Assembly: GCA_019428855.1 (NCBI GenBank)
Contig: JAHYJV010000006.1
Location: 17,934 to 49,933 of the forward strand
Reading direction: 5' to 3'
Source: Patescibacteria group bacterium
GTDB lineage: Bacteria > Patescibacteriota > Minisyncoccia > JAHIHE01 > JAGLIN01
DNA length: 32,000 nucleotides
Under the pieces are notes generated by a model. That model saw only the letters and a list, made by a program, of their open reading frames with translations, searched no databases and was not told the origin of the DNA. Numbering within the stretch: the first letter of the stretch is position 1; each line of letters starts with the position of its first letter. This document shows, piece by piece, positions 1,544 through 31,891 of the stretch. A program made the position numbers and the translations under genes.

Positions 1544-1679
1544 GCTCCACAGGGCTAATGCCACAGTGGAGCCAATGTTGATGTTTTTAAAATTTATAAT
1601 TTTCAAACTTTTGATAAGAGGCAAAGCATCTGTCATCCTGAATTTAATTCGGGATCTTTTGTCTATAACCCCTAGCTTA
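1544..1679 (+). repeat. 136-nt mosaic palindromic element, copy 1
   Basis: Aligns end to end with 9065-9200, roughly nine in ten positions identical by eye. It contains a ggctcca/tggagcc hairpin and the tgtcatcctgaatttaattcgggatc hairpin module (1631-1656). Its last 3 nt are the pbpC stop codon. Confidence 0.85.
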
Positions 1680-9064: not shown

Positions 9065-9200
9065 GCTCCACAGGGCTATTGCCACAATGGAGCCAATGCT
9101 GATGTTTTTTAAATTTCTAATTTTCAAACTTTTGATGAGAGGTAAAGCATCTGTCATCCTGAATTAAATTCAGGATCTTTTGTCTGCAACCTCTAACTTA
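9065..9200 (+). repeat. 136-nt mosaic palindromic element, copy 2
   Basis: Collinear with 1544-1679. It contains a ggctcca-N17-tggagcc hairpin and the perfect palindrome module tgtcatcctgaattaaattcaggatc (9152-9177). Confidence 0.85.
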
Positions 9201-9296
9201 TATCATTTAATACAATGCTTTCTTTTACAATCAAAACACAGTTGAACGATTTATGGGATAATTCAGCGTAATATATTGGAGCTTCTTAATCAAGTC

Positions 9297-18819: not shown

Positions 18820-18844
18820 AAAAATATTATTTTCTAAGAAATTA

Positions 18845-18966
18845 CCTTGAATTACGAAATGCAATATATTTGTCACCCTGAGCTTGTCGAAGGGTAGAAA
18901 ATGCGTCAAATTTATCATAGTTCGACAAGCTCACTATGACAAATTTAGCTATTTCGTAATTCTAAG
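18845..18966. mobile_element. 122-nt MITE-like palindromic element, copy 1
   Basis: Terminal inverted repeats ccttgaattacgaaat and atttcgtaattctaag. Internal arms tgtcaccctgagcttgtcgaa and ttcgacaagctcactatgaca. It differs at only 3 of about 118 aligned core positions from 22515-22636. It lies between the holA stop and the terminator. Confidence 0.8.
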
Positions 18967-18981
18967 AAATTAGATAAAAAG

Positions 18982-19009
18982 AAAACCACCTAGTTGCTAG
19001 GTGTTTTTC
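18982..19009. terminator. bidirectional intrinsic terminator (holA / rpsT)
   Basis: aaaac-cacctag-ttg-ctaggtg-ttttt, between convergent genes. Confidence 0.7.
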
Positions 19010-20454: not shown

Positions 20455-20627
20455 TGTCATTGCGAAGAAGAGGTGTAACCGTTGGGGGTATCGCTCAGGG
20501 CAAGCTCGGCAATCCCGTTGTTATCCTGAATTTATTTCAGGATCTGTCAGGTGATAGATTTTGTCCGTGACTTATTTCACAGGACTAAGGGTTGAAAATA
20601 ATAAACCCTGAAATAAGTTCAGAATGA
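20455..20627. repeat. cluster of four palindromic repeat modules
   Basis: tgtcattgcgaag...ggcaatccc (20455-20516), ttatcctgaatttatttcaggatc (20521-20544), tgtccgtgacttatttcacaggac (20562-20585), and the inverted module accctgaaataagttcagaatga (20605-20627). Confidence 0.8.
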
Positions 20628-22502: not shown

Positions 22503-22514
22503 ATTAATATATTT

Positions 22515-22636
22515 CCTTGAATTACGAAATGCAATATATTTGTCACCCTGAGCTTGTCGAAGGGTGGGAAATGCGTCAAATTTATCATAGTTTGACAAGC
22601 TCACTATGACAAATTTAGCTATTTCGTAATTCAAAG
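22515..22636. mobile_element. 122-nt MITE-like palindromic element, copy 2
   Basis: Same element as 18845-18966, with terminal inverted repeats ccttgaattacgaaat and atttcgtaattcaaag. It ends 24 nt before the tsaD start codon. Confidence 0.8.
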
Positions 22637-22660
22637 ATATTTAAAAAATAAAACAGTTTT

Positions 22661-23707
22661 ATGGTTATTTTGTCAATTGAAACTTCCTGCGACGAAACAG
22701 CAGTTGCTATTGTTGAATTCAAAAATAAAAGTGCCAAGGTTTTGGCGAATATAGTTTCCTCACAGGTAAAAATGCACAGTAAATTTGGTGGAGTGGTTCC
22801 TTCTTTGGCTTCGCGAATGCATTTGAAGAACATCATTCCAATCCTGGAAAGATCTTTGTGCAAAGCCAAAATTTCCAAAAAGAAAATTGATTTTGTGGCG
22901 GTGACGAACGGTCCTGGATTGATTCCTGCTCTTATGGTAGGTGTGGGAGCGGCGAAAGCCCTTGCTTATGGATTAGGAAAGCCGTTGATTGGCATTCACC
23001 ATATTGAAGGACATATTTATGCCAATTGGTTGAAAAAATACGATGCGAAAAAAAATAAATTATGGGAAGCCGAGTTTCCAATTATTTGTCTGACGGTTTC
23101 AGGGGGACATACTCAAATCATTCTGATGAAAAAAGATTTAAATTATCAGATTCTCGGAGAAACTTTGGATGATGCAGTGGGGGAAGCATTTGATAAGGTT
23201 GCCAAGCTTTTAGATTTAGGATATCCGGGCGGACCTATAATTGAAAAGATGGCCCAAAAAGGAGATGAAGAAAAAATCAAATTTCCGCGACCGATGGCAA
23301 GCAGTGGTGATTATAATTTTTCTTTTTCAGGATTGAAAACGGCGGTTTTATATGAGGTGAGGACGCAGCAAGAAATTAATAAGCAATATAAATGTGATGT
23401 GGTAGCCTCATTTCAAAAAGCGGCATTTGATGTTCTTGTTTCCAAGACTATAAAAGCGGCCCAAGAATATAAAGTGAAAAATATTGTTTTAGGAGGAGGA
23501 GTGTCGGCAAATAAAAAATTACAAAAATTATTAGCCGGAGCGATTGAAGCAAATTTACCAACTTGTGGTTGTTCTTTTCCGCTGGCAAAATTAACTTCGG
23601 ATAATGCTTTGATGATTGCTCTGGCAGCTTATCGGCACATTGAGAATAGTAAAGGAATGAAAGATTGGAAAAGTGTGCCAGCAGATGCAAATTTGAAATT
23701 AAAATAA
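22661..23707 (+). CDS. tsaD: tRNA N6-adenosine threonylcarbamoyltransferase TsaD
   Basis: ILSIETSCDETAVAIV, the metal-binding HHIEGHI motif, VSGGHTQI, and GGGVSANKKL, the characteristic Kae1/TsaD blocks. Confidence 0.95.
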   Translation: MVILSIETSCDETAVAIVEFKNKSAKVLANIVSSQVKMHSKFGGVVPSLASRMHLKNIIPILERSLCKAKISKKKIDFVAVTNGPGLIPALMVGVGAAKALAYGLGKPLIGIHHIEGHIYANWLKKYDAKKNKLWEAEFPIICLTVSGGHTQIILMKKDLNYQILGETLDDAVGEAFDKVAKLLDLGYPGGPIIEKMAQKGDEEKIKFPRPMASSGDYNFSFSGLKTAVLYEVRTQQEINKQYKCDVVASFQKAAFDVLVSKTIKAAQEYKVKNIVLGGGVSANKKLQKLLAGAIEANLPTCGCSFPLAKLTSDNALMIALAAYRHIENSKGMKDWKSVPADANLKLK

Positions 23708-23860
23708 AAAAACACGGGAGTGGAGAATGCAATAAAATGTAATTCTGCCTGAAAGCGGGAATAAAATAATGCCTCAGCCAAACTCTGCTCTCGCTCCGCT
23801 TCACACTCTCATGAGATTTAATCTTCCCAGACTGTCTAATCTTTTAATAAATTTTAGTTT

Positions 23861-25072
23861 ATGAAAATAATCAATATGCAACAAAATCAAAAAGAAAGGT
23901 GGAATCAATTTGTTGCTTTGAATAGTTTAGAGAGTTTTTTGCAATGTTGGGAGTGGGGGGAGTTTCAAAAGGCAATCGGTAAAGAAATATTCAGAATTGG
24001 CATTGAAGACGAAGGTGAAATTTTGGCGGTTGCTCTTTTGGTAAAATATGATTTGCCATTTGGAAAAAGCTATTTATATTGTCCGCGCGGTCCAGTTATA
24101 AAATCGGAAAATCAAGATCAGAAATCAGAAAGGTCTGATTTGTTATTTTCTGAAATAAAAAAAATGGCCGAGAAAGAAAAAATTATTTTTTTGAAAATTG
24201 ATCCGCCCGTTGAACGAAAACAGAAATATCTCAAGAACTTTAAGAAAGCCTCTACTGAAATTCAGCCCAAAGACACCTTGATTCTTAATCTTGAAAAATC
24301 AGAAGAAGATCTTTTAAAAGAGATGAAACCAAAGACACGCTATAATATCCGACTGGCTTCCAAAAAAGGAGTTAAGATAATTTCAACTTCAAACTATGAA
24401 AAATATTTTCCAAAATTTTGGAACTTAACAGAAGAAACTTCAAAGCGTGATAAGTTTGTTTCTCATAACCAGGATTATTATTGGAAAATGCTTAAAAATT
24501 TGAGTAAGGAGATTTGTCATTCTGAATTTATTTCAGAATCTATCAAAAAAAAGGATTTAGATAGTGCTTGCTTTACAAGACAAGGGTCGGAGAAAATAGA
24601 AAAGATTGGTAATTTCAAAAAAAAGATTCTGAATCAAGTTCAAAATGACGATATGTATTTTGATAATGATTTTGGCAATAACGAAAGCAAACAAAATCTT
24701 CATGCCAAATTATATCTCGCAGAATTTGAAGCGAAAATTATTGCCGCCAATATTGTTTTGTATTTTGGAGATTTGGCAATTTATCTTCACGGAGCATCAT
24801 CAAATGAACAGCGTAATCTCATGGCTCCCTATCTCCTGCAATGGCAACAAATTCAAGATGCAAAAGTTGCGGGATATAAAAAATATGATTTTTGGGGAAT
24901 TACCATCGCAGGTGAAAAAGAAAGTTGGCAGGGGATTACGAAGTTTAAAAAAGGTTTTGGTGGCATGGAAAAAAGATATATTGGCACCTACGATTTAGCA
25001 ACTGATAAATTATTATATAATTTATATCAAACAGTGAAAAAAGTTAAAAGAAGTTGCCATGCAAAATCATAG
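23861..25072 (+). CDS. FemAB-family peptidoglycan interpeptide-bridge aminoacyltransferase (FemX/MurM-like) carrying an in-frame repeat insertion
   Basis: FLQCWEWGEFQ, YCPRGPV, KPKTRYNIRLASKKGV, YLHGASS, and YDFWGI...FKKGFGG are Fem family blocks. A non-homologous segment of about 45 aa is encoded by 24515-24650. Confidence 0.8.
   Translation: MKIINMQQNQKERWNQFVALNSLESFLQCWEWGEFQKAIGKEIFRIGIEDEGEILAVALLVKYDLPFGKSYLYCPRGPVIKSENQDQKSERSDLLFSEIKKMAEKEKIIFLKIDPPVERKQKYLKNFKKASTEIQPKDTLILNLEKSEEDLLKEMKPKTRYNIRLASKKGVKIISTSNYEKYFPKFWNLTEETSKRDKFVSHNQDYYWKMLKNLSKEICHSEFISESIKKKDLDSACFTRQGSEKIEKIGNFKKKILNQVQNDDMYFDNDFGNNESKQNLHAKLYLAEFEAKIIAANIVLYFGDLAIYLHGASSNEQRNLMAPYLLQWQQIQDAKVAGYKKYDFWGITIAGEKESWQGITKFKKGFGGMEKRYIGTYDLATDKLLYNLYQTVKKVKRSCHAKS
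24515..24650. mobile_element. MITE-like palindromic element inside the femX-like ORF
   Basis: Left end tgtcattctgaatttatttcagaatc. The right end gattctgaatcaagttcaaaatgacg is an imperfect reverse complement of the left end. The same module occurs at five intergenic sites in this window. Confidence 0.7.
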
Positions 25073-31124: not shown

Positions 31125-31660
31125 CTTTGAATTACGAAATGAGCATTTCTTTTTTTGTCATCCCGAAAAAGTGGTAGCGACGGAGGGATCTAAAAGTAAA
31201 TTTAGTTTCATTTCCCCTGTTCTAAGATCTCTCACTTCGTTCGAGATGACAGGTTGGAACAACTATTGTCATCCCGAGCCACACTTGTCACCCTGAGCTT
31301 GTCGAAGGGTTGAAGTCTCACAAAACAACCTCTGACACAAAAACTCACCATACACTGTCATCCCGAAAGAGCGGTAGCGACGGAGGGATCTAAAAGTAAA
31401 TTTAGTTTCATTTCCCCTGTTCTAAGATCTCTCACTTCGTTCGAGATGACAGGTTGGAACACCTTTTGTCACCCTGAGCCACACTTGTCACCCTGAGCTT
31501 GTCGAAGGGTTGAAGTCTCAAAAAACAACCTCTGACACAAAAACTCACCATACACTGTCATCCCGAAAGAGCGGTAGCGACGGAGGGATCTAAAAGTAAA
31601 TTTAGTTTCATTTCCCCTATTCTAAGATCTCTCACTTCGTTCGAGATGACAGGTTGGAAC
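31125..31660 (+). repeat. composite repeat: MITE left end followed by 2.5 copies of a 200-bp tandem unit
   Basis: ctttgaattacgaaat at 31125-31140. Unit starts (tgtcatcccgaaa) are at 31156, 31356 and 31556. Units 1 and 2 differ at about 8 of 200 positions. Each unit is a ~105-nt imperfect hairpin plus ~95 nt carrying two tgtcaYccYgagc modules. Confidence 0.9.
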
Positions 31661-31683
31661 CATCTTGATTTTTCGAGGCTCTG

Positions 31684-31707
31684 AAGTAGTGCTACTACTT
31701 TTTTTTC
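31684..31707 (+). terminator. weak intrinsic terminator after the tandem array
   Basis: aagtag-tgcta-ctactt running into a run of about 9 T. Confidence 0.4.
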
Positions 31708-31722
31708 TTATCCCTCACTTAT

Positions 31723-31751
31723 TTGTGATAATTTAAAAAAAATGCTATAAT
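31723..31751 (+). promoter_or_regulatory. sigma70-like promoter with extended -10
   Basis: TTGTGA, 17-nt spacer ending in TGc, then TATAAT. It lies about 140 nt upstream of ATG 31892. Confidence 0.55.
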
Positions 31752-31891
31752 TTAAAAAAGAAAATAAGTTTGTTCTGACTTGCTAATCTTAGTGCAGCAA
31801 TTGTCAGGGCAAAAGACATAGTTTATCTTCTAAATCAAACAACAAAATATAAAAATCAAATTGAATTTCAATTAACTTATAAATAAAAATT

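Follow-up and report, generated by a model that had tools for sequence, protein, structure and literature searches.

What is a palindromic block of DNA doing inside the open reading frame (ORF) of a cell-wall enzyme, and what has kept it there? The question arises from a 32,000-nt stretch of contig JAHYJV010000006.1 from a Patescibacteria group bacterium, which was analysed at its full length and is called the window below. In it, a gene for a FemX-like protein runs through a segment of ~135 nt (24515–24650) that an initial reading, made from the letters alone (the sequence-only reading), took for a MITE-like (miniature inverted-repeat transposable element) insertion. We find that the segment is inserted repeat DNA, not native sequence, and that it is tolerated between two conserved Fem blocks. 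The explanation we favour, and consider very probable, is that it is a dimer of repetitive extragenic palindromes (REPs) of the kind marked by an unpaired CGTC or TGTC tag, lying in frame in the linker of the FemX-like protein; on translation it would give a disordered loop, and it would have passed down with the gene, apart from occasional deletions.

A hairpin dimer in the reading frame of a FemX-like gene

The ORF continues through the segment in frame, with no stop or frameshift, as first claimed and as both the sequence and the ORF list bear out, and positions 24515–24649 supply 45 codons for residues 219–263 (CHSEFISES...KILNQVQND). The left end, TGTCATTCTGAATTTATTTCAGAATC, is exactly as the sequence-only reading gave it, and the left module agrees in sequence with intergenic copies; the right end is GATTCTGAATCAAGTTCAAAATGACG. 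Inverted hairpin modules do bound the segment: the reverse complement of the right end agrees with the left end at 21 of 26 positions (manual count), and because no more than these match, a search allowing three mismatches left the two ends unpaired. The left module forms a DNA hairpin of −5.4 kcal/mol (z = −3.3). The right module's own hairpin has decayed in the window (DNA −1.1 kcal/mol, z = +0.5) and is perfect in three orthologous loci, L001, L007 and L008, with near-perfect terminal inverted repeats in L001 and L008 (L numbers denote loci and P numbers ortholog proteins; P0004 corresponds to L001, P0008 to L003 and P0016 to L008). Folding of the whole 136-nt segment gives −30.3 kcal/mol (z = −3.6), a stability matched by 0 of 200 shuffles. 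The unit would comprise two 27-nt modules, each made of a tag, an 8-bp stem, a 5-nt loop and a short tail, set in opposite orientation around a spacer of ~81 nt. Frame +0 is the sole open frame of the six in all six copies of the element; with 45 codons and exactly one open frame, the gene therefore stays intact.

Filled and empty versions of the site occur among the relatives of this gene. The ortholog genes examined, filled and empty, all lie directly downstream of tsaD and are therefore orthologs. When linker length is taken as the segment between the conserved L..L and L.A[KR]L blocks, including those 8 flanking residues, 120 homologs show modes of 15 and 19 aa, and most homologs are short. 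Six proteins are filled (the window protein, P0002, P0003, P0004, P0005 and P0016, at identities from 79% down to 52%), and at the DNA level the element block in all six genes is exactly 135 nt long, in phase 0 and at the same position. Even the most distant of them, P0016 at 52% identity, carries the palindrome and not just a homologous peptide. The close relatives P0008 and P0006 lack the insert, so that an empty site is found at L003, for example. The aligned gene DNA of L001 (filled) and L003 (empty) is ~96% identical outside two insertion blocks, one of net 72 nt and one of 165 nt that contains the element, and synteny at the two loci agrees save for a Y1-transposase gene that L001 has and L003 lacks; one study supplied both L002, a filled allele, and the empty L003. 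These empty-site orthologs, the ~96% identical pair and an intergenic relative of the element at 20519–20627 uphold the earlier statement that the segment is repeat DNA. In P0013, ~36 nt resembling both termini are left (FHSEYIKQVQNN), which looks like a decayed remnant of the element and would imply residence followed by loss.

That the segment is an assembly or annotation artefact, or that the gene is a pseudogene split there, is scarcely credible. Palindromic repeats can misassemble and the source is a metagenome-assembled genome, but six assemblies from different projects all have the 135-nt block at one and the same codon; as these come from three sources (NCBI, JGI and ENA), an assembly artefact is ruled out. 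A pseudogene, for its part, is at odds with the intact ORF, with a host ratio of nonsynonymous to synonymous substitution (dN/dS) of 0.16–0.27 and with a confidently predicted fold.

By Pfam match and model, the host protein is a member of the FemAB family with a predicted FemX fold. Its sequence agrees at 100% identity with an annotated protein of a Patescibacteria-group genome. It matches PF02388 (E = 2.7e-55) and, in phmmer, S. aureus FemX (6snr; E = 1.7e-25), and an AlphaFold2 model built with a 110-sequence alignment has a mean predicted local distance difference test score (pLDDT) of 86.9 and a predicted template-modelling score (pTM) of 0.83. The best Foldseek matches of this model are S. 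aureus FemX 6snr (E = 8e-22) and Weissella FemX (TM-score 0.79–0.80 by target), a 335-aa protein on which the core of the model superposes. Residues 219–266 are the sole segment with pLDDT below 50; they contain no secondary structure and are flanked by helices at 204–214 and 274–278. The insert is thus predicted to be a disordered loop that leaves the FemX fold otherwise untouched.

The sequence-only reading had held that family members normally have a short linker here. This stands for the Patescibacterial orthologs, with their modes of 15 and 19 aa, and for Weissella FemX; it fails for S. aureus FemA and FemX, in which a stretch of similar length aligns at the insert position, between the conserved Fem blocks. 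This stretch we take to be their coiled-coil arm. The coiled-coil arm of staphylococcal Fem proteins is a folded helical hairpin. The arm (PDB 1lrz, 6snr) resembles the insert in length and position; unlike the arm, the insert is predicted to be disordered, is repeat-derived and is absent from close relatives. Since the insert aligns where the S. aureus proteins have a stretch of similar length, the site appears to be a permissive, variable one in the family.

The host gene is bordered by tsaD (22661–23707) on one side and by a gene for a PrsW-like membrane protein on the other. Synteny of tsaD and femAB was seen at all orthologous loci examined, and in L005 the PrsW-protease Pfam match falls on the syntenic gene. 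Coordinates are collected in Table 1.

Table 1. Positions of the element and its parts, its host gene and related modules (window coordinates unless a locus is named)
Feature	Position	Strand	Remarks
Whole element	24515..24650	+	Dimer of TGTC/CGTC-tagged REP hairpins, tags outward (5'-TGTCA...TGACG-3')
Left REP module	24515..24541	+	Tag TGTC 24515-24518, loop TTTAT, tail CT; encodes CHSEFISES
Left module stem, 8 bp	24519-24526 and 24532-24539		ATTCTGAA/TTCAGAAT
Spacer of dimer, ~81-82 nt	24542..24623	+	Encodes variable middle of insert
Right REP module	24624..24650	-	CGTC-ATTTTGAA-CTTGA-TTCAGAAT-CT; encodes (K)ILNQVQND; one stem mismatch
FemAB-family (FemX-like) host gene	23861..25072	+	403 aa; ORF list and Pfam
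Single intergenic REP module TGTCATCCTGAATTTAATTCGGGATCT	1631..1657	+	Within 137-nt repeat D3 (1544-1680); hairpin z = -4.0
Single intergenic REP module TGTCATCCTGAATTAAATTCAGGATCT	9152..9178	+	Within second D3 copy (9065-9201); hairpin z = -4.1
Intergenic relative of whole element, 109 nt	20519..20627	+	Left module 20519-20545, right module 20601-20627 (-)
In-frame single modules in other loci	L033 2185-2209; L072 3752-3776; L064 5125-5149; L056 2393-2417; L113 717-741		

Near-constant hairpins and a drifting spacer

Nucleotide divergence separates the parts of the element from each other and from the gene around them. Across the host gene, with the dN/dS given above, nucleotide divergence is 27%, and 37% of residue pairs that are the same use different codons. 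For the 81-nt spacer, dN/dS is 0.5–1.7, divergence 34% and the share of same-residue pairs with different codons 18%; because only 3 of its 27 residues are invariant, the spacer peptide does not appear to be selected as protein. The two 27-nt termini have a dN/dS of about 0–0.32 where it is defined (dN = dS = 0 in two pairs), a divergence of 4–6% (4.4% for the left module among orthologs) and different codons in 8% of same-residue pairs. Nine-codon stretches of the host gene are as conserved as the termini in just 4 of 325 cases. Between L001 and L007, divergence is 0.22–0.31 in the upstream flank, 0.15–0.20 downstream and 0.04–0.09 over the termini. Additionally, the right hairpin of L005 carries a compensatory double change (CC/GG) from ATTCTGAA/TTCAGAAT to ATCCTGAA/TTCAGGAT, and its left hairpin carries two changes. 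Such constancy of the hairpins at the nucleotide level points to a cause at the level of nucleic acid, and the termini may be either constrained there or homogenised by conversion. With its drifting spacer and its hairpins fixed at silent sites, the element offers a natural experiment that separates protein-level from nucleic-acid-level constraint within one ORF.

These numbers bear directly on whether the insert could be an adaptive, exapted domain, a lineage-specific substitute for the coiled-coil arm of the staphylococcal proteins (in binding tRNA or a partner, for instance), whose peptide is under selection. It does occupy the stretch where S. aureus FemX and FemA have extra sequence of similar length, and exactly 45 codons have been kept across orthologs of 52–79% identity. 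The terminal peptides CHSEFISES and ILNQVQND are nearly invariant, but they are conserved at synonymous sites too, which protein selection does not require, and the spacer between them has the high dN/dS and few invariant residues described above. The insert is moreover predicted to be fully disordered, with no helices; P0008 and P0006 manage without it; and at least five unrelated repeat peptides stand at the same linker in other orthologs. We consider selection for a new domain highly improbable. For annotation, this 45-residue stretch of a cell-wall enzyme is to be read as repeat-derived and not as a functional domain, which affects alignments and structure-based inference in Patescibacteria.

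A different possibility is that the hairpins have been kept as a cis-acting RNA or DNA element, serving mRNA stability or processing, translational pausing, or as a site for a protein or gyrase, in which case their acquisition would have been regulatory. The conservation of the termini well beyond that of the flanks and the compensatory changes in stem pairs speak for this, yet an identical pattern of conservation is expected under gene conversion by other copies in the genome, the right hairpin of the window has decayed, and the left hairpin of L005 carries two changes. Further points in its favour are a loop sequence that is conserved across phyla although the search pattern left it free, several viral contigs with 7–10 copies on one strand, and the RNA-level roles that the REP literature proposes (PMC3733652). 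We hold a cis-acting role to be possible, though only tentatively so.

Under our favoured explanation of an in-frame REP dimer, the element would have entered a surface linker between two lobes of the FemX-like enzyme; our guess for the route is a hairpin-dependent single-strand mechanism acting in trans. The gene would have survived as the 45-codon block has one of its six frames open, and the insert would be translated as a disordered loop. Afterwards the element would have been inherited with the gene and deleted now and then, and its spacer would have drifted without protein-level selection. The hairpins would meanwhile have been held near-constant at the DNA level, whether because the hairpin is selected for in mRNA or in single-stranded DNA or because other REP copies convert it.

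Gain, loss and other repeats at the FemX linker

Several observations weigh against this explanation. In the trio formed by the window, L005 and L006, the tract of low divergence runs well past the element into its flanks, and part of the trio's conservation may reflect recombination or local constraint. The filled and empty alleles differ at the element site by 165 nt, not by 135–136, and the surrounding linker differs too, its flanks being rearranged. No target-site duplication was seen in the filled/empty comparison, nor a flanking direct repeat in any of the six copies (0/6). The tail of the element, C-T-(A/T), is similar but not identical to the published consensus CCA of CGTC-tagged REPs (PMC3733652). 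No mobilising enzyme was found by neighbourhood enrichment, by inverted-pair searches or by searches of the loci for Y1 genes. Finally, a tree computed with a masked insert places the element in a single clade, among whose members some nested ones are empty, and also on the distant branches P0016 and P0068; this distribution fits both one old gain with several losses and repeated insertion at a hot-spot. From these comparisons we conclude that conservation of the termini is the only robust part of the low-divergence signal. A younger age of the element than of the gene, suggested by the low within-clade synonymous divergence (dS) of its core, was dropped, as the low-divergence tract of the trio reaches the flanks.

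Other orthologs have peptides at the same linker, likewise in frame, that derive from no fewer than five further repeat families (VILRRNDEES...SLSLAQDD, KAPQP.GTMEP, NPPSPLFQRGN, QDTRYKNQKN and AGAGLQPVPN). The linker insert of P0031 is, at the DNA level, another TGTC-tagged dimer (−47 kcal/mol), and this gene has a further module cluster at a second site. The FemX linker is a hot-spot entered by at least six repeat families, and it can serve as a model locus for how small genomes tolerate, keep and lose selfish palindromes.

It is in this setting that the element might have been inserted independently several times, a site-specific hot-spot arising from target preference and from the linker being the only tolerated site. 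The patchy distribution on the tree would fit such a history, as would the element-flanking sequences, which differ between clades, the entry of at least six repeat families into the linker (confirmed at the DNA level for P0031), and a copy with a homologous core in a different gene (L200) from the same metagenome as P0016. Core similarity, however, tracks the division of the main clade into two host subclades, the six copies do not differ in length or phase, and P0013 has its apparent remnant. On balance we think independent insertion rather unlikely.

Other insertions were noted alongside. Residues ~216–270 of P0068 read, at the protein level, as the same element with its right terminus interrupted (KKILKQ-ACLPGRQ-AQDD); the interruption appears to be another GC-rich hairpin repeat, inserted within the element. 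P0004 has a second in-frame palindromic insertion (L001 3354–3450, femAB codons ~118–150) that makes it net 72 nt longer than P0008, with hairpins of the GGTTCCATAG...CTGTGGAACC type that resemble the intergenic hairpins of the window at 1426–1509 and 1544–1575 (GGCTCCACAG...CTGTGGAGCC); P0007 and P0009 have related peptides at this second site. In the adjoining gene, TsaD is 425–435 aa long in L008 (1567–2844) and L322 (197–1504), compared with 347–354 aa in most other loci. The added length comes from several extra in-frame segments, such as KHTPAPLKRGIH, ...LPTGRQV... and ...CLPDRQALPEGE..., some of which resemble the repeat-derived peptides of FemAB orthologs; tsaD of the window has none.

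Related modules and known repeat systems

Six modules of the TGTC/CGTC-tagged family lie in the window, two of them coding. Of the intergenic copies listed in the sequence-only reading, four stand, at 1631–1657, 9152–9178, 20519–20545 and (minus strand) 20601–20627, where shuffled sequence is expected to give 0 matches; the fifth, at 20560–20586 in the middle of the 109-nt relative, is a degenerate TGTC-tagged hairpin only. This list rests on alignment and not on the hairpin censuses of the window, in which a perfect-stem scan proved too strict (2 hits) and a tolerant one too noisy (14 against 4.1 expected). The relative at 20519–20627 can be aligned over its full length with the coding element (nhmmer E = 7.6e-10, profile positions 1–134), contains hairpins with z-scores of −7.9 and −5.3 in its region, and has stop codons in all six frames.

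The window also holds repeats of other construction. The copies at 1544–1680 and 9065–9201 belong to a 137-nt composite repeat, 91% identical between them, that combines a GGCTCCACAG...CTGTGGAGCC hairpin with a TGTC-tagged REP module; the genes on either side are convergent for one copy and co-directional for the other. At 31156–31755 three 200-nt units follow one another in tandem; compared with the first, the second is 97% and the third 64% identical, and every unit holds several TGTC-tagged hairpins of other types, GTCATCCCGAAAGAGCGGTAGCGACGGAGGGATC and GTCACCCTGAGCTTGTCGAAGGGTT. A 149-nt repeat at 18835–18983 and 22505–22653 (91% identical) is built from inverted TGTCACCCTGAGCTTGTCGAAGGGTG-type hairpins whose stems covary (CACCCT/AGGGTG and CATAGT/ACTATG). 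Searches of Rfam at the gathering threshold and at E ≤ 1 gave no match to the TGTC hairpins; the only weak, sub-threshold match was on the 149-nt repeat, on both strands, to RF02901 (Aggregatibacter sRNA 41; 40.8 bits against a gathering threshold of 97).

Beyond the window, a scan of species-representative genomes with the pattern GTCATYCTGAA-N5-TTCRGRATC gave at least 120 stretches. Among the matches listed, to which the figures on phyla, loops, tags, tails, open frames and dimers refer, the module occurs across many phyla, with record titles that include Gastranaerophilales, Elusimicrobiota and Dehalococcoidia. The dominant loops across phyla are CTTGT, CTTGA, CTCGA and TTTAT, and though free in the pattern they are conserved (CTTGT in 59, CTTGA in 28 and TTTAT in 21 of 142 copies). 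In the same 142 copies the tag position −1 is T in 53% and C in 37%, and the tail begins with C, followed by T (76%) or C (21%) and then A (39%) or C (35%). The stem is likewise preserved: 463 of 486 loose matches retain every one of the four variable pairs, pair 1, which follows the fixed A-T, is T-A in 451 of those 463, and pair 2 is C-G in 325 copies, T-A in 105 and G-C in 25. Open frames of at least 450 nt contain 22% of genomic copies, as against 85% of random positions.

A minority of copies are coding. Single 27-nt modules lie in frame in conserved genes of other phyla and of Patescibacteria, namely in the LigA HhH domain (Nomurabacteria), the HsdM N6_Mtase (Lacinutrix), GltB (Treponema), a PMT_2/TPR membrane protein (Patescibacteria) and a Fer4 protein, where they encode VILNLFQDP, RHSELVSES, CHPELVSGS, WILKQVQDD and KILKQVQND. 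Two-terminus dimers number at least 120 in metagenomes, at 119–147 nt (mode 140). Most of their spacers are unrelated or contain further modules, and homologous cores were seen only in the femAB orthologs and in L200, where a Wzy_C O-antigen-ligase-like gene from the metagenome that yielded P0016 contains the copy (nhmmer, 80 bits) in its reading frame. A related dimer lies in an NlpC/P60 gene (L219). From these copies it follows that the unit has resided at more than one locus. Metagenomic 'ORFs' of high GC content that span dimers (L131, L176, L181 and L233) were set aside as probable chance open frames. An hmmsearch with a profile of the insert against 1.84 billion cluster representatives returned 0 hits, so the full-length insert peptide is not widespread, with the limits that representatives may lack the insert and that its 9-aa terminal motifs are too short for such a search. 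A word-index protein search with the 46-aa insert profile gave four candidates, missed the source proteins themselves and was uninformative.

The neighbourhoods of ~240 module-bearing loci offered no candidate for a mobiliser: no protein family is enriched within 2.5 kb of modules, between inverted module pairs 0.4–3.5 kb apart there are ordinary genes alone, with no autonomous parent element, and a non-exhaustive search of these loci found no insertion sequence (IS) with matching termini. A GIY-YIG association was rejected, a homolog being present in only 2 of 120 loci and adjacent in neither; a small 86-aa GIY-YIG gene does lie upstream of tsaD in one filled locus (L007 1299–1559, minus strand), with no consistent association with REP modules elsewhere. 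An IS200-like Y1 transposase gene (L001 2191–2727; PF01797, 31.8 bits; HUH motif HYHIIIKT) stands between tsaD and femAB in L001 and L002, is absent from L003, and is the only Y1 gene in the loci. It is flanked by three same-orientation copies of a structured repeat of ~100 nt (L001 2055–2190, 2728–2835 and 2870–3000), and one solo copy of that repeat lies in the window at 23700–23810, just upstream of femAB. Some viral contigs of 16–30 kb in IMG/VR (L274 and L263, L271 and L282, L291 and L286) have 7–10 module copies, all confined to one strand, which lie mostly between genes and often run antisense to the adjacent ORFs; ~15 nt to their 3' side there is typically another TGTC-tagged hairpin (TGTCATTTCGAGCG...).

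What moves such a 27-nt hairpin, or preserves it in nearly one form in many phyla and in phages? It is conceivable, although we would put it forward only as a speculation, that CGTC/TGTC hairpins are selected nucleic-acid elements even in coding DNA and that in Patescibacteria they belong to a general process by which several families of palindromic repeats enter permissive loops of essential proteins (FemX, TsaD, Wzy and NlpC/P60) again and again. If so, repeat insertion would be a major source of protein-length variation in reduced genomes, and the near-identity of the module in many phyla and phages would imply a conserved hairpin-recognising machinery.

Among described systems, the closest are the CGTC-tagged REPs of Di Nocera, De Gregorio & Rocco (2013, BMC Genomics 14:522; PMC3733652). 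These have an unpaired CGTC (TGTC or CCTC allowed) before a stem of 8–9 bp that opens with A-T and then T-A, and a loop of 4–5 nt. They occur in five phyla, mainly as dimers in opposite orientation with spacers of 20–100 bp, and have no dedicated transposase; most are intergenic, and in-frame intragenic copies are common, with hosts that include PBP1C, MurB and AmpG (PMC3733652). The element matches in its tags, TGTC on the left and CGTC on the right (minus strand), which directly abut the stems; in its 8-bp stem ATTCTGAA/TTCAGAAT, which opens with the same two pairs; in its 5-nt loops, TTTAT and CTTGA; and in its layout as an opposite-orientation dimer with outward tags and a spacer of ~81 nt. 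The module is also multi-copy, dispersed, mainly intergenic and in a minority of cases in frame within genes, and no transposase was found near it in ~240 loci. The peptides agree as well. Those published for REPs are VIPAKAGI, CHSRESGNP, RHPGLDPGS, DSRFRGND and WTPDQVRGD (PMC3733652), the module is read in the same three frames as VILNLFQD, CHSEFISES and ILNQVQND, and the published intragenic dimers likewise start with a tag-first peptide and end in ...RGND. Back-translation suggests that RHPGLDPGS and WTPDQVRGD imply the same CTTGA loop, and RHPGLDPGS would correspond to GTCATCCCGGACTTGATCCGGGATC, the window module with a GC-richer stem and the same loop. Unlike the CCGCG-type distal stem that back-translation implies for the CGTC-1 peptides VIPAKAGI and CHSRESGNP, the distal stem here is CTGAA/TTCAG, and Patescibacteria are not among the five published phyla. 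Compared by described features, the module appears to fit the CGTC/TGTC-tagged REP superfamily.

The sequence-only reading had likened the insertion to Rickettsia palindromic elements (RPEs; Ogata et al. 2000, cited in PMC10969869), and this comparison proves closer than was claimed. RPE-6 is CGTC-1 and RPE-4 is CGTC-4 (PMC3733652); because both belong to the superfamily that the module fits, the analogy is probably one of shared superfamily membership and not mere resemblance. Both cases involve palindromic repeats that lie in frame in unrelated housekeeping genes (with the cell-wall genes PBP1C, MurB and AmpG among the published hosts), are tolerated as surface peptides and also occur between genes; here, the element stands in an intact housekeeping ORF as the sole segment predicted to be disordered in a confident FemX fold. 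The differences, judged from the descriptions in PMC3733652, are another host phylum and another distal stem and loop, as well as a single insertion that persists across orthologs of 52–79% identity with hairpins conserved at the nucleotide level.

Two further systems share parts of this design. In REPINs, GTAG-tagged REP doublets are mobilised by IS200-like Y1 transposases, the RAYTs (REP-associated tyrosine transposases; PMC3116915). Like the element, they have hairpins with a conserved unpaired 5' tag, an inverted pair as the presumed mobile unit and no target-site duplication, and an IS200-like Y1 gene adjoins femAB in one ortholog locus. The tag here, however, is [C/T]GTC and not GTAG, the sole Y1 gene is flanked by a different repeat of ~100 nt, and the module is conserved across phyla, whereas REPINs are lineage-specific. 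In-frame fusions are known for bacterial MITEs such as Coxiella QMITE, enterobacterial repetitive intergenic consensus (ERIC) sequences and Anabaena MITEs (PMC5896051, PMC10969869, PMC3184786), and the element resembles classical MITEs in being small and non-autonomous, with terminal inverted repeats and an occasional in-frame fusion with a host ORF. Nevertheless, the label 'MITE-like' is loose: there is no target-site duplication, no related or parent IS with matching ends was found among the loci searched, the shared unit is the 27-nt hairpin and not the whole element, and spacers are unrelated in most copies.

The phenomenon itself is thus largely explained by what has already been described, intragenic dimers of CGTC-tagged, RPE-like REPs, here in a new phylum and a new host gene. 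The insertion is less exceptional than the sequence-only reading had supposed, as intragenic CGTC REPs are documented in several phyla and in cell-wall genes. Patescibacteria are unmentioned in the 2013 survey (PMC3733652) and in the text of the 2025 RepRanger census, and the host range of CGTC REPs and RPEs is extended accordingly. Relative to these systems, the window and its orthologs add a host among the Patescibacteria, an insertion that has long persisted by vertical descent while its hairpins stayed conserved, a related copy within a Wzy_C gene, and a linker that is a hot-spot for at least six repeat families.

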